DNA from: a phage
Reading direction: 5' to 3' (one strand)
DNA: 64,000 nucleotides
NCBI GenBank assembly: GCA_017686895.1
Contig: GCA_017686895.1_4521.1
The notes beneath the pieces are model-generated. The model saw nothing but the letters and a program-made list of their open reading frames with translations, searched no databases and had not been told where the DNA came from. Positions 1,729-61,544 of the stretch are shown in pieces; positions within the stretch are counted from its first letter, which is position 1; every line of letters begins with the position of its first letter. The position numbers and the translations under genes were made by a program.

Positions 1729-2039
1729 GAAGCCGGGTCGCTACCGGTAAGTCGTCGGACTGATGTTCCCTGAGTAAGGACTGGTCTTAATAAATCTTTA
1801 TGATTCGTTAATATCCCCTTACATCACAGCAGAAACGGCGCACAGAATTATCGATTCGAGGAAATATCTTTGCCGTAAGCCGAGTAGCGTTTTTGACGGA
1901 ACGTTCGGATATGGTCGAGATATGGCCTTTTAAAAATATTGAGTAGCGTCAACTGCTTAATAACCGGGTTCGAATCCCGGCGTTTCGTACAAACACTTGC
2001 CTTAGCAGGTGGAACCCCGACAAGGTTACCGCAAGGCTT

Positions 2040-10784: not shown

Positions 10785-11273
10785 ATGAATATATTTGAAA
10801 TGCTTCGTAATGACGAAGGTCTTAGACTGACTTTATACAAAGACACTGAAGGCTTTTGGACGATTGGTATAGGCCATTTAGTAACAAAGAACCCGTCTTT
10901 AGCCGTAGCTAAAGCTGAACTTGACAGAATGATCGGTCGTAAATGCAACGGTACAATTACCCTTGATGAGGCTGAAAAGCTATTTAATGAAGACGTTGAT
11001 AAAGCCGTTCGCGGAATCTTGGGTAATGCTAAACTTAAACCGGTATATGATTCTTTAGATGCGGTTCGTCGATGTGCATTGGTCAATATGGTCTTCCAAA
11101 TGGGTGTAGCAGGCGTTGCTGGTTTTACTAATTCTCTTCGTATGCTTCAACAGAAACGTTGGGATGAAGCGGCAGTAAATCTAGCTCAATCTAAATGGTA
11201 TCGTCAGACACCTAATCGCGCGAAACGCGTAATCTCAACATTTAAAACAGGAACTTGGAAAGCGTATATATGA
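10785..11273 (+). CDS. e: lysozyme (endolysin)
   Basis: [31 protein letters not shown]... nearly colinear with T4 lysozyme as I recall it; start at ATG 10785 after GGGAGG RBS. Confidence 0.95.
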
Positions 11274-12030: not shown

Positions 12031-12360
12031 ATGAAAACATATCAAGAGTTTATCACTGAAGTTACATTATCTGCGGAACAGAAAGCTGCTATCGAAGAAA
12101 GTAAAAATCCCAAAGTAACATATAAAGTAAATAGTAAAGGCGTTTTTGATGGCTTGGTTCAAGACCCTGAATTGAAAAAAGCTCTTTCTAAAACTAATGC
12201 GTACTTTGCTCCTAAATTTAACACAGCAGGTGTACTTATTGGATTGGATGTATTCAACTCTAAAGGTGTTCTATCTAATGCCTTTGGCTATGCCGCTAAC
12301 AAAATTACCAAAGCCGCATGGGAATCCAATACCAAACAAGCTCAAAAGCCTAGAGTATAA
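12031..12360 (+). CDS. internal head protein (IP-like) with capsid-targeting leader
   Basis: Starts MKTYQEFITE, the same leader as T4 IPII/IPIII. Confidence 0.6.
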   Translation: MKTYQEFITEVTLSAEQKAAIEESKNPKVTYKVNSKGVFDGLVQDPELKKALSKTNAYFAPKFNTAGVLIGLDVFNSKGVLSNAFGYAANKITKAAWESNTKQAQKPRV

Positions 12361-12532
12361 TTCTTGTCTAATAAAGGGAAACGCAACCTCTCCTTATGAA
12401 CGTCGAGTCCTCTGAGTGATGTACCTTTTCCAACCTGTAATAAGGTCGAGCGCAATGCGGTAATGGGTTTACATAGCGAGTCGAAGGACCTAACATGTGC
12501 CACGGAATGGCCCAAACCTTAAGAGAAATAAT

Positions 12533-16786: not shown

Positions 16787-17368
16787 ATGGCTAGTTTAAT
16801 TTTTACCTATGCCGCTATGAACGCTGGTAAGTCTGCTTCATTACTTACTGCCGCACATAACTATAAAGAACGTGGCATGGGTGTATTAGTTCTTAAACCG
16901 GCTATTGATACTCGCGATTCAAAAGGTGAAATAGTCTCCCGTATTGGTATTCGTCAGGATGCCAATATAATTACAAAAGACATGGATATCTTTGAATTTT
17001 ATAAATGGGCTGCAGCACAAAAGGATATTCACTGTGTATTTGTTGACGAAGCTCAGTTCTTAACTACTGAAAAGGTGTATCAACTTAGTCGTATTGTTGA
17101 CATATACAATGTGCCGGTAATGGCATACGGACTACGAACAGATTTTAAAGGTAATCTATTTGAAGGTTCTCAAGCATTAATGGCTATTGCCGATAAGCTT
17201 GTTGAACTTAAAGGTGTCTGTCATTGTGGTAAAAAGGCCACTATGGTAGCTAGAGTCACGGAAGATGGACTTCCAATTACAGATGGTGGACAAATTGAAA
17301 TTGGTGATACCGATAGATATGTGTCGTTATGCCGGAAGCATTGGAATGATTTGACAGGGTTGTTATAA
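16787..17368 (+). CDS. tk: thymidine kinase
   Basis: MASLIFTYAAMNAGKSASLL P-loop, zinc ribbon CHCGKKA...LCRKH; 193 aa, colinear with T4 Tk. Confidence 0.95.
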   Translation: MASLIFTYAAMNAGKSASLLTAAHNYKERGMGVLVLKPAIDTRDSKGEIVSRIGIRQDANIITKDMDIFEFYKWAAAQKDIHCVFVDEAQFLTTEKVYQLSRIVDIYNVPVMAYGLRTDFKGNLFEGSQALMAIADKLVELKGVCHCGKKATMVARVTEDGLPITDGGQIEIGDTDRYVSLCRKHWNDLTGLL

Positions 17369-17371
17369 ATA
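17364..17371 (+). promoter_or_regulatory. late promoter core TATAAATA
   Basis: Exact T4 late-promoter octamer about 25 bp upstream of the ORF at 17396. Confidence 0.5.
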
Positions 17372-17395: not shown

Positions 17396-17608
17396 ATGCA
17401 GCAATTAAACGAAAGACAACTTCGTAATCTTACTGTAACCCAATTGGATGAAATCCGAAGAGAATTAGGACATTCTATTTCTCATTTAAACGAGGATATC
17501 CGTCAAACTGGTTCTAAAGCTGATTATACACGCAAGCGCAAGCTGGAAAAATACCTCGAAGATGTTAAGGCCGTCCAAAGGCGAAAAATAAATACTGGCC
17601 AAAATTAA
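17396..17608 (+). CDS. hypothetical basic protein
   Basis: 70-aa ORF with AAGAGG RBS directly upstream of rI. Confidence 0.5.
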
Positions 17609-17620
17609 CAGGAGGCCTAT

Positions 17621-17923
17621 ATGGCCTTAAGAGCGATAGCCATTGTGGCGATGCTGGGGTTTTTTGCAGCAACGACTCCTATTGTTGGCACTGCATATGT
17701 TGACCCATACTTTGATAACTTTATGGAATCAGGGATTAAAAACGTATATACTTTGTTCGAAATTCAAAATGTTGAGAATTCTGAAAAATTTTATAAGTAT
17801 ATGGCAAAGCATTACAAAAATAGCCCCTGTGATGATGCATTTGAATGCCAGGAACAAGGCATAAAAACTGCCAGACAATTTGCTGAGTTCATGAAAATAA
17901 AATTAGAGCCTACATCTATCTAA
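17621..17923 (+). CDS. rI: lysis-inhibition regulator rI
   Basis: MALRAIAIVAMLGFFAA... then DPYFDNFMESGIKNVYTLFE...; resembles T4 RI in length and sequence. Confidence 0.9.
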   Translation: MALRAIAIVAMLGFFAATTPIVGTAYVDPYFDNFMESGIKNVYTLFEIQNVENSEKFYKYMAKHYKNSPCDDAFECQEQGIKTARQFAEFMKIKLEPTSI

Positions 17924-17929
17924 TTTACT

Positions 17930-17958
17930 AGCCCCTTCCTTATGGTTGGGGCTTTTTT
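17930..17958 (+). terminator. intrinsic terminator
   Basis: AGCCCCTTCC-TTAT-GGTTGGGGCT then TTTTTT. Confidence 0.6.
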
Positions 17959-21159: not shown

Positions 21160-22140
21160 ATGTTCAACGTTCAAATCAAAAAAGGTATCTATCGTAATAA
21201 CGAAATCTCTGGTTCTTATGTTGCCACAAAGACATGGTTCCCGGCAAAGCTTAATCCTGAATGTTCCCACTTAGGTGACGGTAAAATTTTCGTTATGATT
21301 GATGGTTCTGAACGTGGAGTATGGGTCTTCAAATCAGACATCGTAATGGAAGGAGTTGAGACGTCACCAGTTGCAGTTGTTGAAAGCACTGAAGATATGA
21401 AAACTCGTATCAACAAACGCTTTAAAGTAATGAACATGATGACGAATGGCATTATTGATGGCAAAATTCGTTCACTCATTATTTCAGGTGCAGCTGGTAT
21501 TGGTAAGACGTATTCTCTGGATAAAGCACTTAATAATGCTAATGATAATGGTTTCATCAAATACAAAAGCATTAATGGTAAAATCTCCAGTATTGGCCTT
21601 TACGAACAACTTTGGCTCAACCGTGATGAAGACAGCGTTCTCTTAATCGATGACGTTGACGTATTCTCAGATATGGACATCCTGAACCTTCTTAAAGCAG
21701 CATTAGATACCGGAGATAAACGCAAAGTTTGTTGGAGCACTGCGTCATCTTATCTCGAGGATAAGGGTATTGATAAAGAATTTGAGTTTGAAGGTACTAT
21801 CGTTTTCATTACAAACGTTGATATCGATAAAGAGTTAGAACGGGGTTCGAAACTTGCTCCACACCTTCAAGCTTTAGTATCTCGTTCAGTGTATCTCGAC
21901 CTTGGAGTACACTCTAATGAAGAGATTATGGTTCGAGTTGAAGATGTAATATTATCTACTGATATGATGCAGAAACGTGGCTTGACTGATGCTGAAACGT
22001 ATAAAGCATTGTCCTGGATGAAGGCTAATGTATCTCGTCTTCGCAATGTATCATTACGTACGGCTCTTTATGTAGCAGATTTTATTTCAACTGATAAAGA
22101 TGGTTGGGAGGAAATCTCTGAAGTAACTTTATTGAAATAA
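21160..22140 (+). CDS. P-loop ATPase
   Basis: Walker A GAAGIGKT and Walker B LLIDDVD. Confidence 0.5.
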   Translation: MFNVQIKKGIYRNNEISGSYVATKTWFPAKLNPECSHLGDGKIFVMIDGSERGVWVFKSDIVMEGVETSPVAVVESTEDMKTRINKRFKVMNMMTNGIIDGKIRSLIISGAAGIGKTYSLDKALNNANDNGFIKYKSINGKISSIGLYEQLWLNRDEDSVLLIDDVDVFSDMDILNLLKAALDTGDKRKVCWSTASSYLEDKGIDKEFEFEGTIVFITNVDIDKELERGSKLAPHLQALVSRSVYLDLGVHSNEEIMVRVEDVILSTDMMQKRGLTDAETYKALSWMKANVSRLRNVSLRTALYVADFISTDKDGWEEISEVTLLK

Positions 22141-22278
22141 GCTTACAGGAAGTTCTGAGGTAACAAAAGCCATAAAGATGAATAATCATATGGCTTACCT
22201 CAAAGAAGGACACCAGGAACCTACTGAGGGCATAGAAATATTTAAAAATAATGATGTACAAATCAAAGAGGATATGTT

Positions 22279-22566
22279 ATGGATTTTATGCAAAAAATTA
22301 AAGCCGCAGTCGAACTCTATGCCCATCGTATGGTTAGTTCTACAATGCAATATAGCGAGGAGGTTCGCCAGGACTCTTCCTTGAAAGGAAAAACTAAAGC
22401 CTTAATTACCTTAGATCATTTGCAAAAGAGTGCCATAGAGATGCTCCAGTACGACAAGGATGCGTATAAGAAAGAACAGGAAGAGAAACTTAAATCTGAA
22501 AAATTACAAAAAATCCCGAAGTCGGTTTGGTTCAGTGGAAAAAATACCGAAAAAAGTTTCTTTTAG
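22279..22566 (+). CDS. hypothetical protein
   Basis: 95-aa ORF; weak RBS. Confidence 0.4.
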   Translation: MDFMQKIKAAVELYAHRMVSSTMQYSEEVRQDSSLKGKTKALITLDHLQKSAIEMLQYDKDAYKKEQEEKLKSEKLQKIPKSVWFSGKNTEKSFF

Positions 22567-57734: not shown

Positions 57735-57983
57735 ATGGAATTATTCGTAGCTAGTTCAGTAGCAGTTTTAATCGCAGGTATTGGTTCAATCATCATTTAC
57801 ATGTTGCCTTGGGTAATCGCACTTATTCGTGGCACAAAAAGCACAACAGCAATCTTCTTTGTATCTTTACTCTTTAACTGGACGATGGTTGGTTGGATTG
57901 GAACTTTAATTTGGTCTATCGTTGCCGAAAAGAAATCTGCTCAGCAGCCTCAACAAGTAATTATTATTCGCGAAAAAGAATAA
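57735..57983 (+). CDS. superinfection immunity (Imm)-family membrane protein
   Basis: YMLPWVIALIRG ... FNWTMVGWIGTLIWSIV resembles the Imm family pattern as I recall it; two TM helices. Confidence 0.5.
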   Translation: MELFVASSVAVLIAGIGSIIIYMLPWVIALIRGTKSTTAIFFVSLLFNWTMVGWIGTLIWSIVAEKKSAQQPQQVIIIREKE

Positions 57984-59717: not shown

Positions 59718-60740
59718 ATGGCTGAATGGATAGATAATGAATTTGCTTATCGTGCGTTTTCTCACCTACCTCGTTTTAGACAAATCAATAATTCAAGCAC
59801 ATTTAAATTAACATTTCGATGTCCAGTTTGTGGCGACTCCCAGACAGATGCAATGAAAGCTCGCGGATGGTATTATGGTGGAACTCCAGGTAATGTGCAT
59901 TGCTATAACTGTCAATATCATAATACAATTTCCGGATACTTAAAAGAGTATGATGAAGAGCTTTATCGCGAATATCTAATGGAAGTTCGTAAAGAAAAAG
60001 CTAGAATGGAACCAAAGATTGAAAAGGTTCCTGAAGCTAAGCCGGAACCAGAGAAAAAGACTATAAATTCTTTGCCGTCTTGTTCTCGTCTGGACAAGCT
60101 GCCCGAAGAGCATCCTATTGTGAAATATGTTAAGTCTCGGTGTATTCCTAAAGAATCATGGAACAGATTATGGTTCACATTAGAATGGCCTAAATTGGTC
60201 AACAAGATTCAACCTGGTACGTATAAGAAAGAGATTCCCGAACCACGTTTAGTGATTCCTATTTTTAATAAAGATGGGAAGGCCGAGTCATTCCAAGGAC
60301 GTGCACTTCGTAAAGATGCTCCTCAGAAATATATCACTATTAAAGCGTTTGAGTCTGCAACAAAAATTTATGGTGTTGAACGTGTTAAGGAAGGGGACGT
60401 CTGGGTAATGGAAGGCCCTATTGATAGTTTATTCATACCCAATGCAATCGCTATTACAGGCGGCTCGATAGATTTAGATGTGGTACCATTTAAAGAACGT
60501 CGGGTATGGGTAATGGATAATGAACCTAGGCATCCGGATACTATAGCTCGTATGAAGCGATTAGTTGATGCAGGCGAACGTGTCATGTTCTGGGACCGAG
60601 CTCCATGGAGATCAAAGGATGTGAATGATATGGTAATGAAAGAAAATGCAACACCACAAGAAATTTTAGAATATATGAAACAGAATATTTCAAGTGGGTT
60701 GCATGCTAAAATGAGATTATCTCGTTATTCGAAGATTTAA
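59718..60740 (+). CDS. 61: DNA primase gp61
   Basis: Zinc ribbon CPVCGDS..CYNC, TOPRIM-like VMEGPIDSLF; 340 aa. Confidence 0.93.
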   Translation: MAEWIDNEFAYRAFSHLPRFRQINNSSTFKLTFRCPVCGDSQTDAMKARGWYYGGTPGNVHCYNCQYHNTISGYLKEYDEELYREYLMEVRKEKARMEPKIEKVPEAKPEPEKKTINSLPSCSRLDKLPEEHPIVKYVKSRCIPKESWNRLWFTLEWPKLVNKIQPGTYKKEIPEPRLVIPIFNKDGKAESFQGRALRKDAPQKYITIKAFESATKIYGVERVKEGDVWVMEGPIDSLFIPNAIAITGGSIDLDVVPFKERRVWVMDNEPRHPDTIARMKRLVDAGERVMFWDRAPWRSKDVNDMVMKENATPQEILEYMKQNISSGLHAKMRLSRYSKI

Positions 60741-60934
60741 ACAAGCCCTATAATAGCAAAGGCCAAATCAACTACAGTATCCAATGGAACAGAAGGAACT
60801 ATAATACCATGGGCAACTAACAATGGTGCAATCCCGAAGTTCCATGAAATAATGCCACCTACAACTATTGCAGCGATGGCAGTTTTCTTTTTATTGCCTT
60901 TAATAGCGTTGATTAACGACGGAAGTTTAAACAT
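60737..60934 (-). CDS. small membrane protein encoded on the minus strand
   Basis: Minus-strand ORF with strong RBS (AAGGAG 6 nt before ATG on the reverse complement); two hydrophobic segments; convergent with gene 61. Confidence 0.45.
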   Translation of the reverse strand: MFKLPSLINAIKGNKKKTAIAAIVVGGIISWNFGIAPLLVAHGIIVPSVPLDTVVDLAFAIIGLV

Positions 60935-61022
60935 AATATCTCCTTAGTTACCTATTATTTATTACGCTTTATAAAATTAATGTTAGAATTAACTCTCTTA
61001 TACTGAATTGAAAGGAAAAATA

Positions 61023-61544
61023 ATGGCGCACTTTAATGAATGTTCACAACTTATTTCTGGTGTTGATAAAGCAGAAGAAGTTTATTTTAATGCTCTGATT
61101 CACGAAGATAAAGACCCACTTCAGGTAATGCTTGATATGCAGAAATCTTTACAGGTTCGTCTGGCAAATGACAAGCCTGAACATAACAAACATCCTGATG
61201 AATTGGCTACTGCTGGTGATGTTGTTGATTGGCTGCGTAATCAGAAAGATTATATTGATGATGAATTCCGTGAACTGTTGACTTCACTTGGTGGTATGAG
61301 CAATGGTGAAAAAGCCGCCAGCAGTGTATGGAAGCCTTGGAAAGCACAACATGCTGAATATCGAAATCGTCGTATCGATGAACTGTCTCCTGAAGACCAG
61401 CTTGAAATTAAATTTGAGATGATTGATATTCTTCATTTCGTTCTGAATATGTTCCAAGGTCTGGGTCTTTCTGCTGAAGAAATCTTTAAACTTTACTACT
61501 TGAAAAACCAACACAACTTTGAACGTCAGGATAATGGTTACTAA
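61023..61544 (+). CDS. 56: dCTP pyrophosphatase gp56 (MazG-like)
   Basis: MAHFNECSQLISGVDKAEE ... ETAGDVVDWLRNQKDYIDDEFRELLTSLG resembles T4 gp56 throughout. Confidence 0.9.
   Translation: MAHFNECSQLISGVDKAEEVYFNALIHEDKDPLQVMLDMQKSLQVRLANDKPEHNKHPDELATAGDVVDWLRNQKDYIDDEFRELLTSLGGMSNGEKAASSVWKPWKAQHAEYRNRRIDELSPEDQLEIKFEMIDILHFVLNMFQGLGLSAEEIFKLYYLKNQHNFERQDNGY

Follow-up and report, generated by a model that had tools for sequence, protein, structure and literature searches.

The window analyzed here, a 64 kb stretch of phage DNA (64,000 nucleotides; NCBI GenBank assembly GCA_017686895.1, contig GCA_017686895.1_4521.1), carries a 65-residue open reading frame (ORF) on its minus strand, between the genes for DNA primase (gene 61) and dCTPase (gene 56). 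That this ORF is a real protein-coding gene is next to certain, and our best explanation of it as a whole, which we put forward tentatively and at somewhat less than an even chance, is that it encodes an accessory membrane protein which is made late, derives from a holin, and affects lysis. The existence of the gene is already known from the annotation of phages RB69 and RB32, from PHROGs, and from hundreds of GenBank records labeled “hypothetical”. New here are its synteny across at least nine T-even-type genera, a conserved late-promoter box, the selection figures, family members outside the T4-like phages, and an unproven link to three-transmembrane (3TM) holins. The features on which the analysis rests are as follows.

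60737..60934, minus strand: 65-aa ORF, orthologue of RB69ORF029w/RB32ORF030w/T4T Dam.1 (phrog_2024); ATG at 60934..60932, TAA at 60739..60737
60945..60940, minus strand: Shine-Dalgarno sequence AAGGAG, with a 5-nt spacer to the ORF’s ATG
60956..60962 (heptamer; octamer 60963..60956), minus strand: ATAAATA, i.e., AATAAATA, matching 7 of the 8 bases of TATAAATA, 21 nt before the ATG
60812..60883, minus strand: predicted single transmembrane helix, residues 18-41, carrying the family-conserved W31-N32 and P37
60740..60811, minus strand: loop rich in Pro and Gly and conserved in the family (HG..P..P.D), followed by a short hydrophobic helix at the C-terminus (residues 42-65; AlphaFold2 and the family alignment)
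60737..60740, strandless: TTAA palindrome, common stop of the convergent gene 61 (plus strand) and the ORF (minus strand)
59718..60740, plus strand: gene 61, DNA primase, 340 aa (phrog_47, E 9e-102)
61023..61544, plus strand: gene 56, dCTPase (phrog_173), divergent from the ORF

A conserved protein-coding gene on the minus strand

The ORF at 60737..60934 (minus strand) translates into the 65-aa sequence MFKLPSLINAIKGNKKKTAIAAIVVGGIISWNFGIAPLLVAHGIIVPSVPLDTVVDLAFAIIGLV. This protein matches the profile hidden Markov model (HMM) of phrog_2024 with an E-value of 1.9e-27 and 95.8 bits, its residues 1-65 aligning to profile positions 1-65 of 65. The same profile, which carries the PHROG function label “unknown function”, is matched by all 19 diverse family members examined. 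A tblastn search with the ORF protein returned 693 phage records, 686 of which cover at least 80% of the query, and the identical 65-aa sequence is present on 217 contigs. Identity to the ORF protein in this search is 95-100% in Mosigvirus, ~54% in Tequatrovirus including T4, and 45-49% in Gaprivervirus. At the nucleotide level, the DNA around the ORF is 98% identical to that of Mosigvirus (RB69-like T-even) phages such as FP43 and ATK47.

The gene has been annotated under the names RB69ORF029w (RB69), RB32ORF030w (RB32), and dam.1 (T4T, HM137666; T4Tp032, ADJ39749.1). The T4 copy is intact and encodes 66 aa (NC_000866 17738..17938, plus strand; locus L003 3739..3939), with AAGGAGG and ATAAATA upstream. 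A recent pyrodigal-based T4 record does call this copy, and the T4 RefSeq record NC_000866 holds no coding sequence in the 310 bp that separate dam from gene 61 (17626..17934; L003 3627..3935). Missing from the reference T4 annotation, the gene is therefore invisible to every screen based on that list. It is also unannotated in the ATK47 RefSeq record (NC_055708), in JS98, and in F48.

Within genera, the ratio of nonsynonymous to synonymous substitution rates (dN/dS) of the ORF is 0.085-0.36 by the Nei-Gojobori method. Between genera, synonymous sites are saturated, with a proportion of synonymous differences (pS) of 0.61-0.75, and dN amounts to just 0.43-0.51. Nucleotide differences fall mostly at codon positions 3 and 1; between the window and locus L012, 12 of the 17 differences are found at the third position. 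A chance reading frame between genes 61 and 56 would have in its favor that there are only 65 codons, that AT-rich genomes give many small ORFs, and that the four records just named, those of T4, ATK47, JS98, and F48, leave the gene unannotated. We exclude such an origin because of the protein-level selection on the ORF and its conservation; along with the synteny, the ribosome site, and the promoter motif described below, these effectively refute it and leave it practically no probability.

In T4_ev240, an evolved T4 assembly (LR597657; locus L042, ~1750..1760), the AAAAAG run of the ORF is one nucleotide shorter, which truncates the reading frame. This deletion may be a genuine inactivating mutation but is indistinguishable from a homopolymer sequencing error, and it was not used as evidence.

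An earlier note on this stretch, made from the sequence alone, had singled out the ORF as the only minus-strand gene in the window, with a strong AAGGAG ribosome-binding site on the reverse strand and a stop overlapping the end of gene 61. Our analysis bears out these points. In a six-frame screen of the 64 kb, 119 non-overlapping plus-strand ORFs cover 92% of the sequence, and the ORF is the sole credible minus-strand gene of at least 40 aa that sits in a gap. The AAGGAG motif lies 5 nt before the ATG, and the two stop codons share the TTAA, the TAA of gene 61 occupying 60738..60740 and that of the ORF 60739..60737, which amounts to an overlap of 4 nt.

Synteny and subtypes in T-even-type phages

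Relatives of the ORF are found at the same position and in the same orientation in at least nine T-even-type genera. Synteny was checked in the window, T4, RB32, CJ20, JS98, Potts1, S16, PKO111, and Q7622, and in the metagenomic loci L026, L040, L041, and L023. All members examined in T4-like genomes lie on the opposite strand on the 3' side of the primase gene, and they adjoin it in every locus but L023, where one 124-aa gene intervenes. The 4-nt stop overlap recurs in T4, RB32, Potts1, S16, L026, and L041, and is not present in CJ20 or PKO111. The gene on the upstream side of the ORF is dam in T4 and gene 56 in the window and elsewhere. Gaprivervirus TH41 (locus L010, 2501..2907) carries a tandem pair, a type A copy of 65 aa and a type B copy of 66 aa, which are 8 nt apart and ~20% identical, and in CJ20 (locus L009) the second tandem copy is degraded, resulting in a 119-nt gap before the primase gene.

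The wider family was found by profile search and exhaustive HMM search. The type B subtype (MGTLFYQIWKL...WNLLVVPIAATQGVILPQVTMEH...) comprises 118 records from Dhakavirus, Marfavirus and other Klebsiella phages, Kanagawavirus, PM2, and others, and the type C subtype (MSEVK...WNY..VP.A..HG..LPP.P.EK...) comprises 279 records from Jiaodavirus, Gelderlandvirus (S16), and others. The subtypes share 15-25% identity, with W, N, P, G, and P invariant among them; the only residues kept across subtypes are W31, N32, P37, G43, P47, an acidic residue at position 52, and G63.

The earlier note listed a lack of conservation in related phages among the observations that would speak against it, and what we find is a gene that is syntenic across many T-even-type genera and under purifying selection. 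The same note had regarded a lone opposite-strand gene as unusual in this context. This view does not stand, since the arrangement is instead a fixed feature of T4-like genomes, entered as a hypothetical protein in hundreds of records.

A late-type promoter box upstream of the ORF

The T4 late promoter consists of TATAAATA at -13 to -6, recognized by the phage sigma factor gp55, and most T4 late genes are carried on the opposite strand. The putative promoter of the ORF lies inside the 88-bp spacer between the ORF and gene 56. ATAAATA is found 16-31 nt before the ATG in Mosigvirus, T4, RB32, Gaprivervirus, JS98, PKO111, L023, and L026. Its contexts are taATAAATA in the window (21 nt), cgATAAATA in T4 (21 nt), caATAAATA in RB32 (22 nt), gcATAAATA in Gaprivervirus (16 nt), gaATAAATA in JS98, taATAAATA in PKO111, and g/cATAAATA in two metagenomic T4-like phages. 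Potts1 and Q7622, which represent two genera, have a perfect TATAAATA upstream of the family gene. The heptamer is kept even though the spacer around it cannot be aligned from one genus to another and the gene upstream is not the same. A ribosome site, AAGGAG(G) or AGGAGG, stands at the same spot in T4, RB32, Gaprivervirus, JS98, Potts1, PKO111, and S16.

ATAAATA is ~3-fold depleted in the window, with 10 sites on both strands against 30.7 +/- 5.3 expected from dinucleotide shuffles (1395, 2077, 2658, 10754, 13425 on the minus strand, 17365, 17588, 28573, 60956, and 61552). Selection that keeps the early region clear of stray late promoters would fit this depletion. The succession of ATAAATA, Shine-Dalgarno sequence, and ATG occurs in four cases in the 64 kb: e (ATG at 10785), rI (17621), soc (61590), and the ORF. 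Endolysin e, antiholin rI, and soc are transcribed late in T4. Perfect TATAAATA boxes number two in the window, one before soc and the other, at 17364..17371, before a 70-aa ORF at 17396..17608. This 70-aa ORF is located just upstream of rI and overlaps the end of the thymidine kinase gene.

A scan of positions 60300-61300 detected neither a sigma-70-type promoter on the minus strand nor, on either strand, an intrinsic terminator or terminator-like hairpin. If the box spans -13 to -6, we infer a transcription start near 60950 and a leader of ~16 nt. Judged by these upstream signals, the ORF is probably a late gene, and a conserved late-type promoter box would explain its reverse orientation within an early/middle gene block.

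Without a terminator, a late transcript of the ORF would run on antisense into gene 61. It is conceivable that the promoter itself is the functional element, that late antisense transcription through the 3' end of gene 61 helps to shut off primase, and that the ORF is a passenger. The convergent genes with overlapping stops, the wide conservation of this overlap, and the hairpin-free scan fit such a scheme. What it fails to account for is that the amino acids are conserved (dN/dS 0.09-0.36 with saturated dS), that residues are invariant across subtypes, that the strong ribosome site is conserved, that a diverged tandem paralogue exists in TH41, and that there are relatives with no primase neighbor. 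We consider it very improbable as the main function; an antisense effect of ORF transcription could be a side benefit.

Predicted membrane topology

The ORF protein is strongly hydrophobic, with a grand average of hydropathy (GRAVY) of +1.24 and Kyte-Doolittle 19-residue windows of up to 1.9. AlphaFold2, run with an alignment of 19 sequences, gives a mean predicted local distance difference test score (pLDDT) of 80 and helices at residues 3-11, 15-41 (27 residues), and 51-61, with a loop at 42-50 (HGIIVPSVP). For RB69ORF029w, a transmembrane segment at residues 21-41 and no signal peptide have been predicted (Nolan et al. 2006, PMC1524935). Hydropathy, the AlphaFold2 model, and this published prediction all back the description of the product as a small hydrophobic membrane protein of 65 aa with which the gene was first reported in this stretch. 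By prediction, the product has the marks of a bitopic inner-membrane protein, namely a hydrophobic helix that is 20 or more residues long, the lack of a cleavable signal peptide, and a positive N-terminal flank. This flank, KGNKKK at residues 12-17, directly precedes the predicted transmembrane helix, and its lysines would place the N-terminus inside and the C-terminus outside according to the positive-inside rule. On these models the ORF product is very probably a membrane protein, and the Trp-Asn pair in the helix together with the Pro/Gly-rich loop suggests helix-helix association.

A Foldseek search of the AlphaFold model against BFVD returned family members only. One of these bears the UniProt label “Holin”; no evidence is visible behind the label, and we set it aside. 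A sequence search of the PDB gave insignificant transmembrane matches only (nicotinic receptor helices) and no related solved structure.

Similarity to three-transmembrane holins

The sole recurrent Pfam match of the family is PF11351 (GTA_holin_3TM), which is hit by 3 of the 19 family members at profile positions ~66-117 of 123. Family members also match holin PHROGs, phrog_3427 (“holin”) with an E-value of 5e-4 and phrog_11161 (“holin”) with an E-value of 0.012. For comparison we used six phage holins that adjoin endolysins, each matching PF11351 at an E-value of 1e-20 or better. An hhalign comparison of the family with these six holins yields a Prob of 86.2%, a P of 4.9e-6, and a score of 35.6 over 50 columns. 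The aligned region pairs the transmembrane helix, loop, and C-terminal helix of the family with the last two hydrophobic segments of the PF11351 holins (columns 75-131).

None of 400 column-shuffled alignments reaches 35.6 (10-11 +/- 2.2, maximum 19.7), and the reversed alignment scores 10.5. Since it was weak similarity that had led to the six holins in the first place, the comparison was repeated with 120 PF11351 proteins gathered independently by full-length profile search, which resulted in a Prob of 81-85% in the same register, with P up to 1.3e-5. Imm and RI of the window, taken as negative controls, give an hhalign Prob of at most 0.1%. Given these comparisons, we lean toward a true evolutionary link between the ORF family and the 3TM holins. 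The family also aligns well with a “GTA-like holin” from Pseudanabaena phage Pan1, but this protein is itself below the PF11351 threshold and was dropped as evidence.

Proposed role and competing explanations

We propose the following course of events. The ORF would be transcribed late from its own [A]ATAAATA promoter via gp55, on the strand of most T-even late genes, and its strong ribosome site would drive synthesis of a 65-residue bitopic inner-membrane protein. In this protein, the lysine-rich N-terminus would be cytoplasmic, one helix (~15/18-41) with a buried Trp-Asn and a Pro would span the membrane, and the Pro/Gly loop and the short hydrophobic helix would be periplasmic. The unit of transmembrane helix, loop, and helix would have branched off in evolution from the last two hydrophobic segments of the PF11351 3TM holins. 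Late in infection, the product would accumulate and self-associate or pair with other membrane proteins, and it may thereby tune the integrity of the membrane or the timing of lysis, in an accessory, non-essential role alongside the T holin and the E endolysin.

A lysis-related function of the ORF, taken by itself, is a possibility that we regard as open to considerable doubt. More speculative still, and rather unlikely, is the general form of the idea: that all enterobacterial T-even phages, T4 included, carry a late-expressed 3TM-holin remnant in their lysis or lysis-inhibition machinery (e.g., a co-holin, an antiholin-like timer, or a depolarizing trigger acting with holin T), and that tail-associated or RelA/SpoT-type conflict systems recruited relatives in temperate phages to be their partners in the membrane.

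Several observations count against a late, holin-derived lysis protein. T4 genetics account for lysis by t and e, and all r loci map elsewhere; a lysis role of the ORF must therefore be accessory. The neighbors of the ORF are primase and dCTPase genes, and endolysin e (10785..11273) is ~50 kb away. The ORF protein itself has no match in Pfam (PF11351 included, even at E <= 10), NCBIfam, or PADLOC, and the best family member reaches 15.3 bits (E 0.03) against PF11351, short of the gathering threshold of 24.8 bits. The family does not qualify for PF11351 membership, being sub-threshold, half the length, and devoid of the three-segment architecture and of GWRP. An hhalign Prob of 81-86% over 50 hydrophobic columns is suggestive and is not proof of holin homology. 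As for late expression, the window box has an A rather than a T at the first position of TATAAATA, S16 has ATTAAATA in place of ATAAATA, and the published list of RB69 late promoters has no site for RB69ORF029w. We attribute the absence from this list to the threshold of a model that had been trained on TATAAATA and do not read it as absence of a promoter; the first T (-13) of T4-like late promoters is poorly conserved (Nolan et al. 2006, PMC1524935). A search of the literature on the gene’s names and accessions, T4 ribosome profiling, and antisense or late transcription returned nothing on its transcript, protein, or phenotype.

The settings of the few distant members outside T4-like phages, which still match phrog_2024 at 1e-11, also speak for another function. 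Among them, P0114 sits between a tail-tip protein gene and a minor-tail-like gene near the serine recombinase/integrase end of a prophage, and P0117 is located at one end of a prophage. P0118 (59 aa; locus L029, 129..1383) lies 16 nt upstream of a gene for a 352-aa RelA/SpoT-domain protein, which matches the PADLOC candidate system PDC-S33, and may be the membrane partner of an alarmone-synthetase-type defense module. No lysis-cassette signal appears among the neighbors of the non-T4 relatives, just a weak “minor tail protein” match. These tail-fiber/moron and RelA/SpoT-like settings favor exclusion or defense at least as well as lysis.

Accordingly, the ORF product might be a superinfection-exclusion protein, or a membrane sensor or partner in conflicts between phages or between phage and host defense, which blocks the entry of rival DNA or engages a membrane defense of the host or a prophage. 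Besides the accessory positions of P0114, P0117, and P0118, it is the presence of imm and sp, both exclusion genes, upstream of the primase gene in T-even genomes that suggests such a function. The ORF product has no sequence relation to Imm, though, and no PADLOC match, and a late promoter would be odd for it, as T4 sets up exclusion within minutes by early genes. Moreover, the similarity to the holin module is the only homology with statistical support. We judge exclusion or conflict to be unlikely.

The late-type promoter logic, which the ORF has in common with soc, would equally suit a late membrane-associated assembly or housekeeping factor with no direct effect on permeability, e.g., one that acts in prohead initiation or stabilizes a phage membrane protein. 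The product is small and strongly conserved with no enzymatic motif, and the conserved polar Trp-Asn and the Pro in its helix suggest binding to a partner helix. Searches of Pfam, PHROG, NCBIfam, folds, and the PDB, however, show no similarity to any morphogenetic protein, and relatives are also found in prophages of the siphophage type, whose head assembly is unrelated. Such a factor is in our view quite improbable, and a holin-derived accessory protein remains our preferred reading of the ORF.

T4 is the best-studied lytic phage, and its system of lysis and lysis inhibition (T, E, RI, RIII, and the spanins) is a textbook model. If the ORF product is holin-derived and affects membrane integrity or lysis timing, it would be a new player in this model, and the family would be a case of a holin fragment persisting as an independent gene. 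Without such a role, the gain would be small and practical, namely an addition to the T4 annotation and a strand switch explained by late-promoter logic; phrog_2024 would still gain a predicted topology and a tentative superfamily link.

Other features of the locus and the window

In annotated relatives, the local gene order is dmd, imm, sp, three small ORFs, 61, the ORF, 56, soc, mrh, and modB/modA. Back-to-back with the promoter box of the ORF is a candidate MotA-type site of gene 56 at 60965..60989 (plus strand; cGCTTTA, 12 nt, TAGAAT), which resembles the T4 consensus and may be a middle promoter. According to a note in the T4 RefSeq record NC_000866, the gene 56 transcript primes oriA in T4.

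The remaining minus-strand ORFs in gaps of the window are scraps of 42-59 aa at 1242-1394 (over tRNAs), 12342-12515, and 22082-22350. The 136-bp gap between plus-strand genes at 12361..12496 has a G+C content unusually high for this genome; it holds no Rfam match at the gathering threshold and only unsupported minus-strand ORFs of 42-57 aa. A close relative, 348Ecol098PP (locus L006, 8459..9175), has an extra minus-strand HNH nuclease gene that is convergent with gene 46 through a 4-nt stop overlap and looks like a mobile homing-endonuclease gene. No HNH nuclease insert is present after gene 46 in the window.

Comparison with known systems

T-even phages already have a holin, T, which is unrelated and, at 218 aa, possesses a large periplasmic domain. 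T and RI are single-transmembrane or signal-anchor envelope proteins that act late. RI (window 17621..17923) shares the signature of ATAAATA, Shine-Dalgarno sequence, and ATG with the ORF, but its product has no detectable sequence relation to that of the ORF (hhalign Prob 0.05%). We know of no genetic evidence that links the ORF to lysis or lysis inhibition. Imm (window 57735..57983) is likewise small and hydrophobic, an inner-membrane protein whose gene lies in the same segment of the genome; in contrast to the ORF product, it has two hydrophobic segments and its gene is on the early strand. The two proteins show no similarity (Prob 0.1%).

RB69ORF029w, RB32ORF030w, and T4T dam.1 are the same gene as the ORF, with position, strand, stop overlap, ribosome site, and ATAAATA box alike. 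The proteins of T4 and its relatives are one residue longer, T4 has dam rather than gene 56 upstream, and none of these entries is assigned a function.

The PF11351 holins, whose family name derives from the putative holin rcc00556 of the Rhodobacter capsulatus gene transfer agent (GTA) (PMC3423380), are encoded next to endolysins in, for example, Vibrio phage 1.208.B (NVP1208B_21), Paracoccus phage ParMal1, and Pseudomonas phage ZRG1. They measure 133-152 aa as compared to the 65 aa of the ORF product, which is devoid of their N-terminal half, i.e., the first hydrophobic segment, the charged/coiled region, and the GWRP motif. The ORF product also stops exactly at the G-L where the PF11351 holins go on with GGMRT.EK. 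Both are small phage inner-membrane proteins, that of the ORF by prediction, and both display the same ~50-residue register, W-x-F..P..(A)..G..(L)P..(L)[DE]........G-L.

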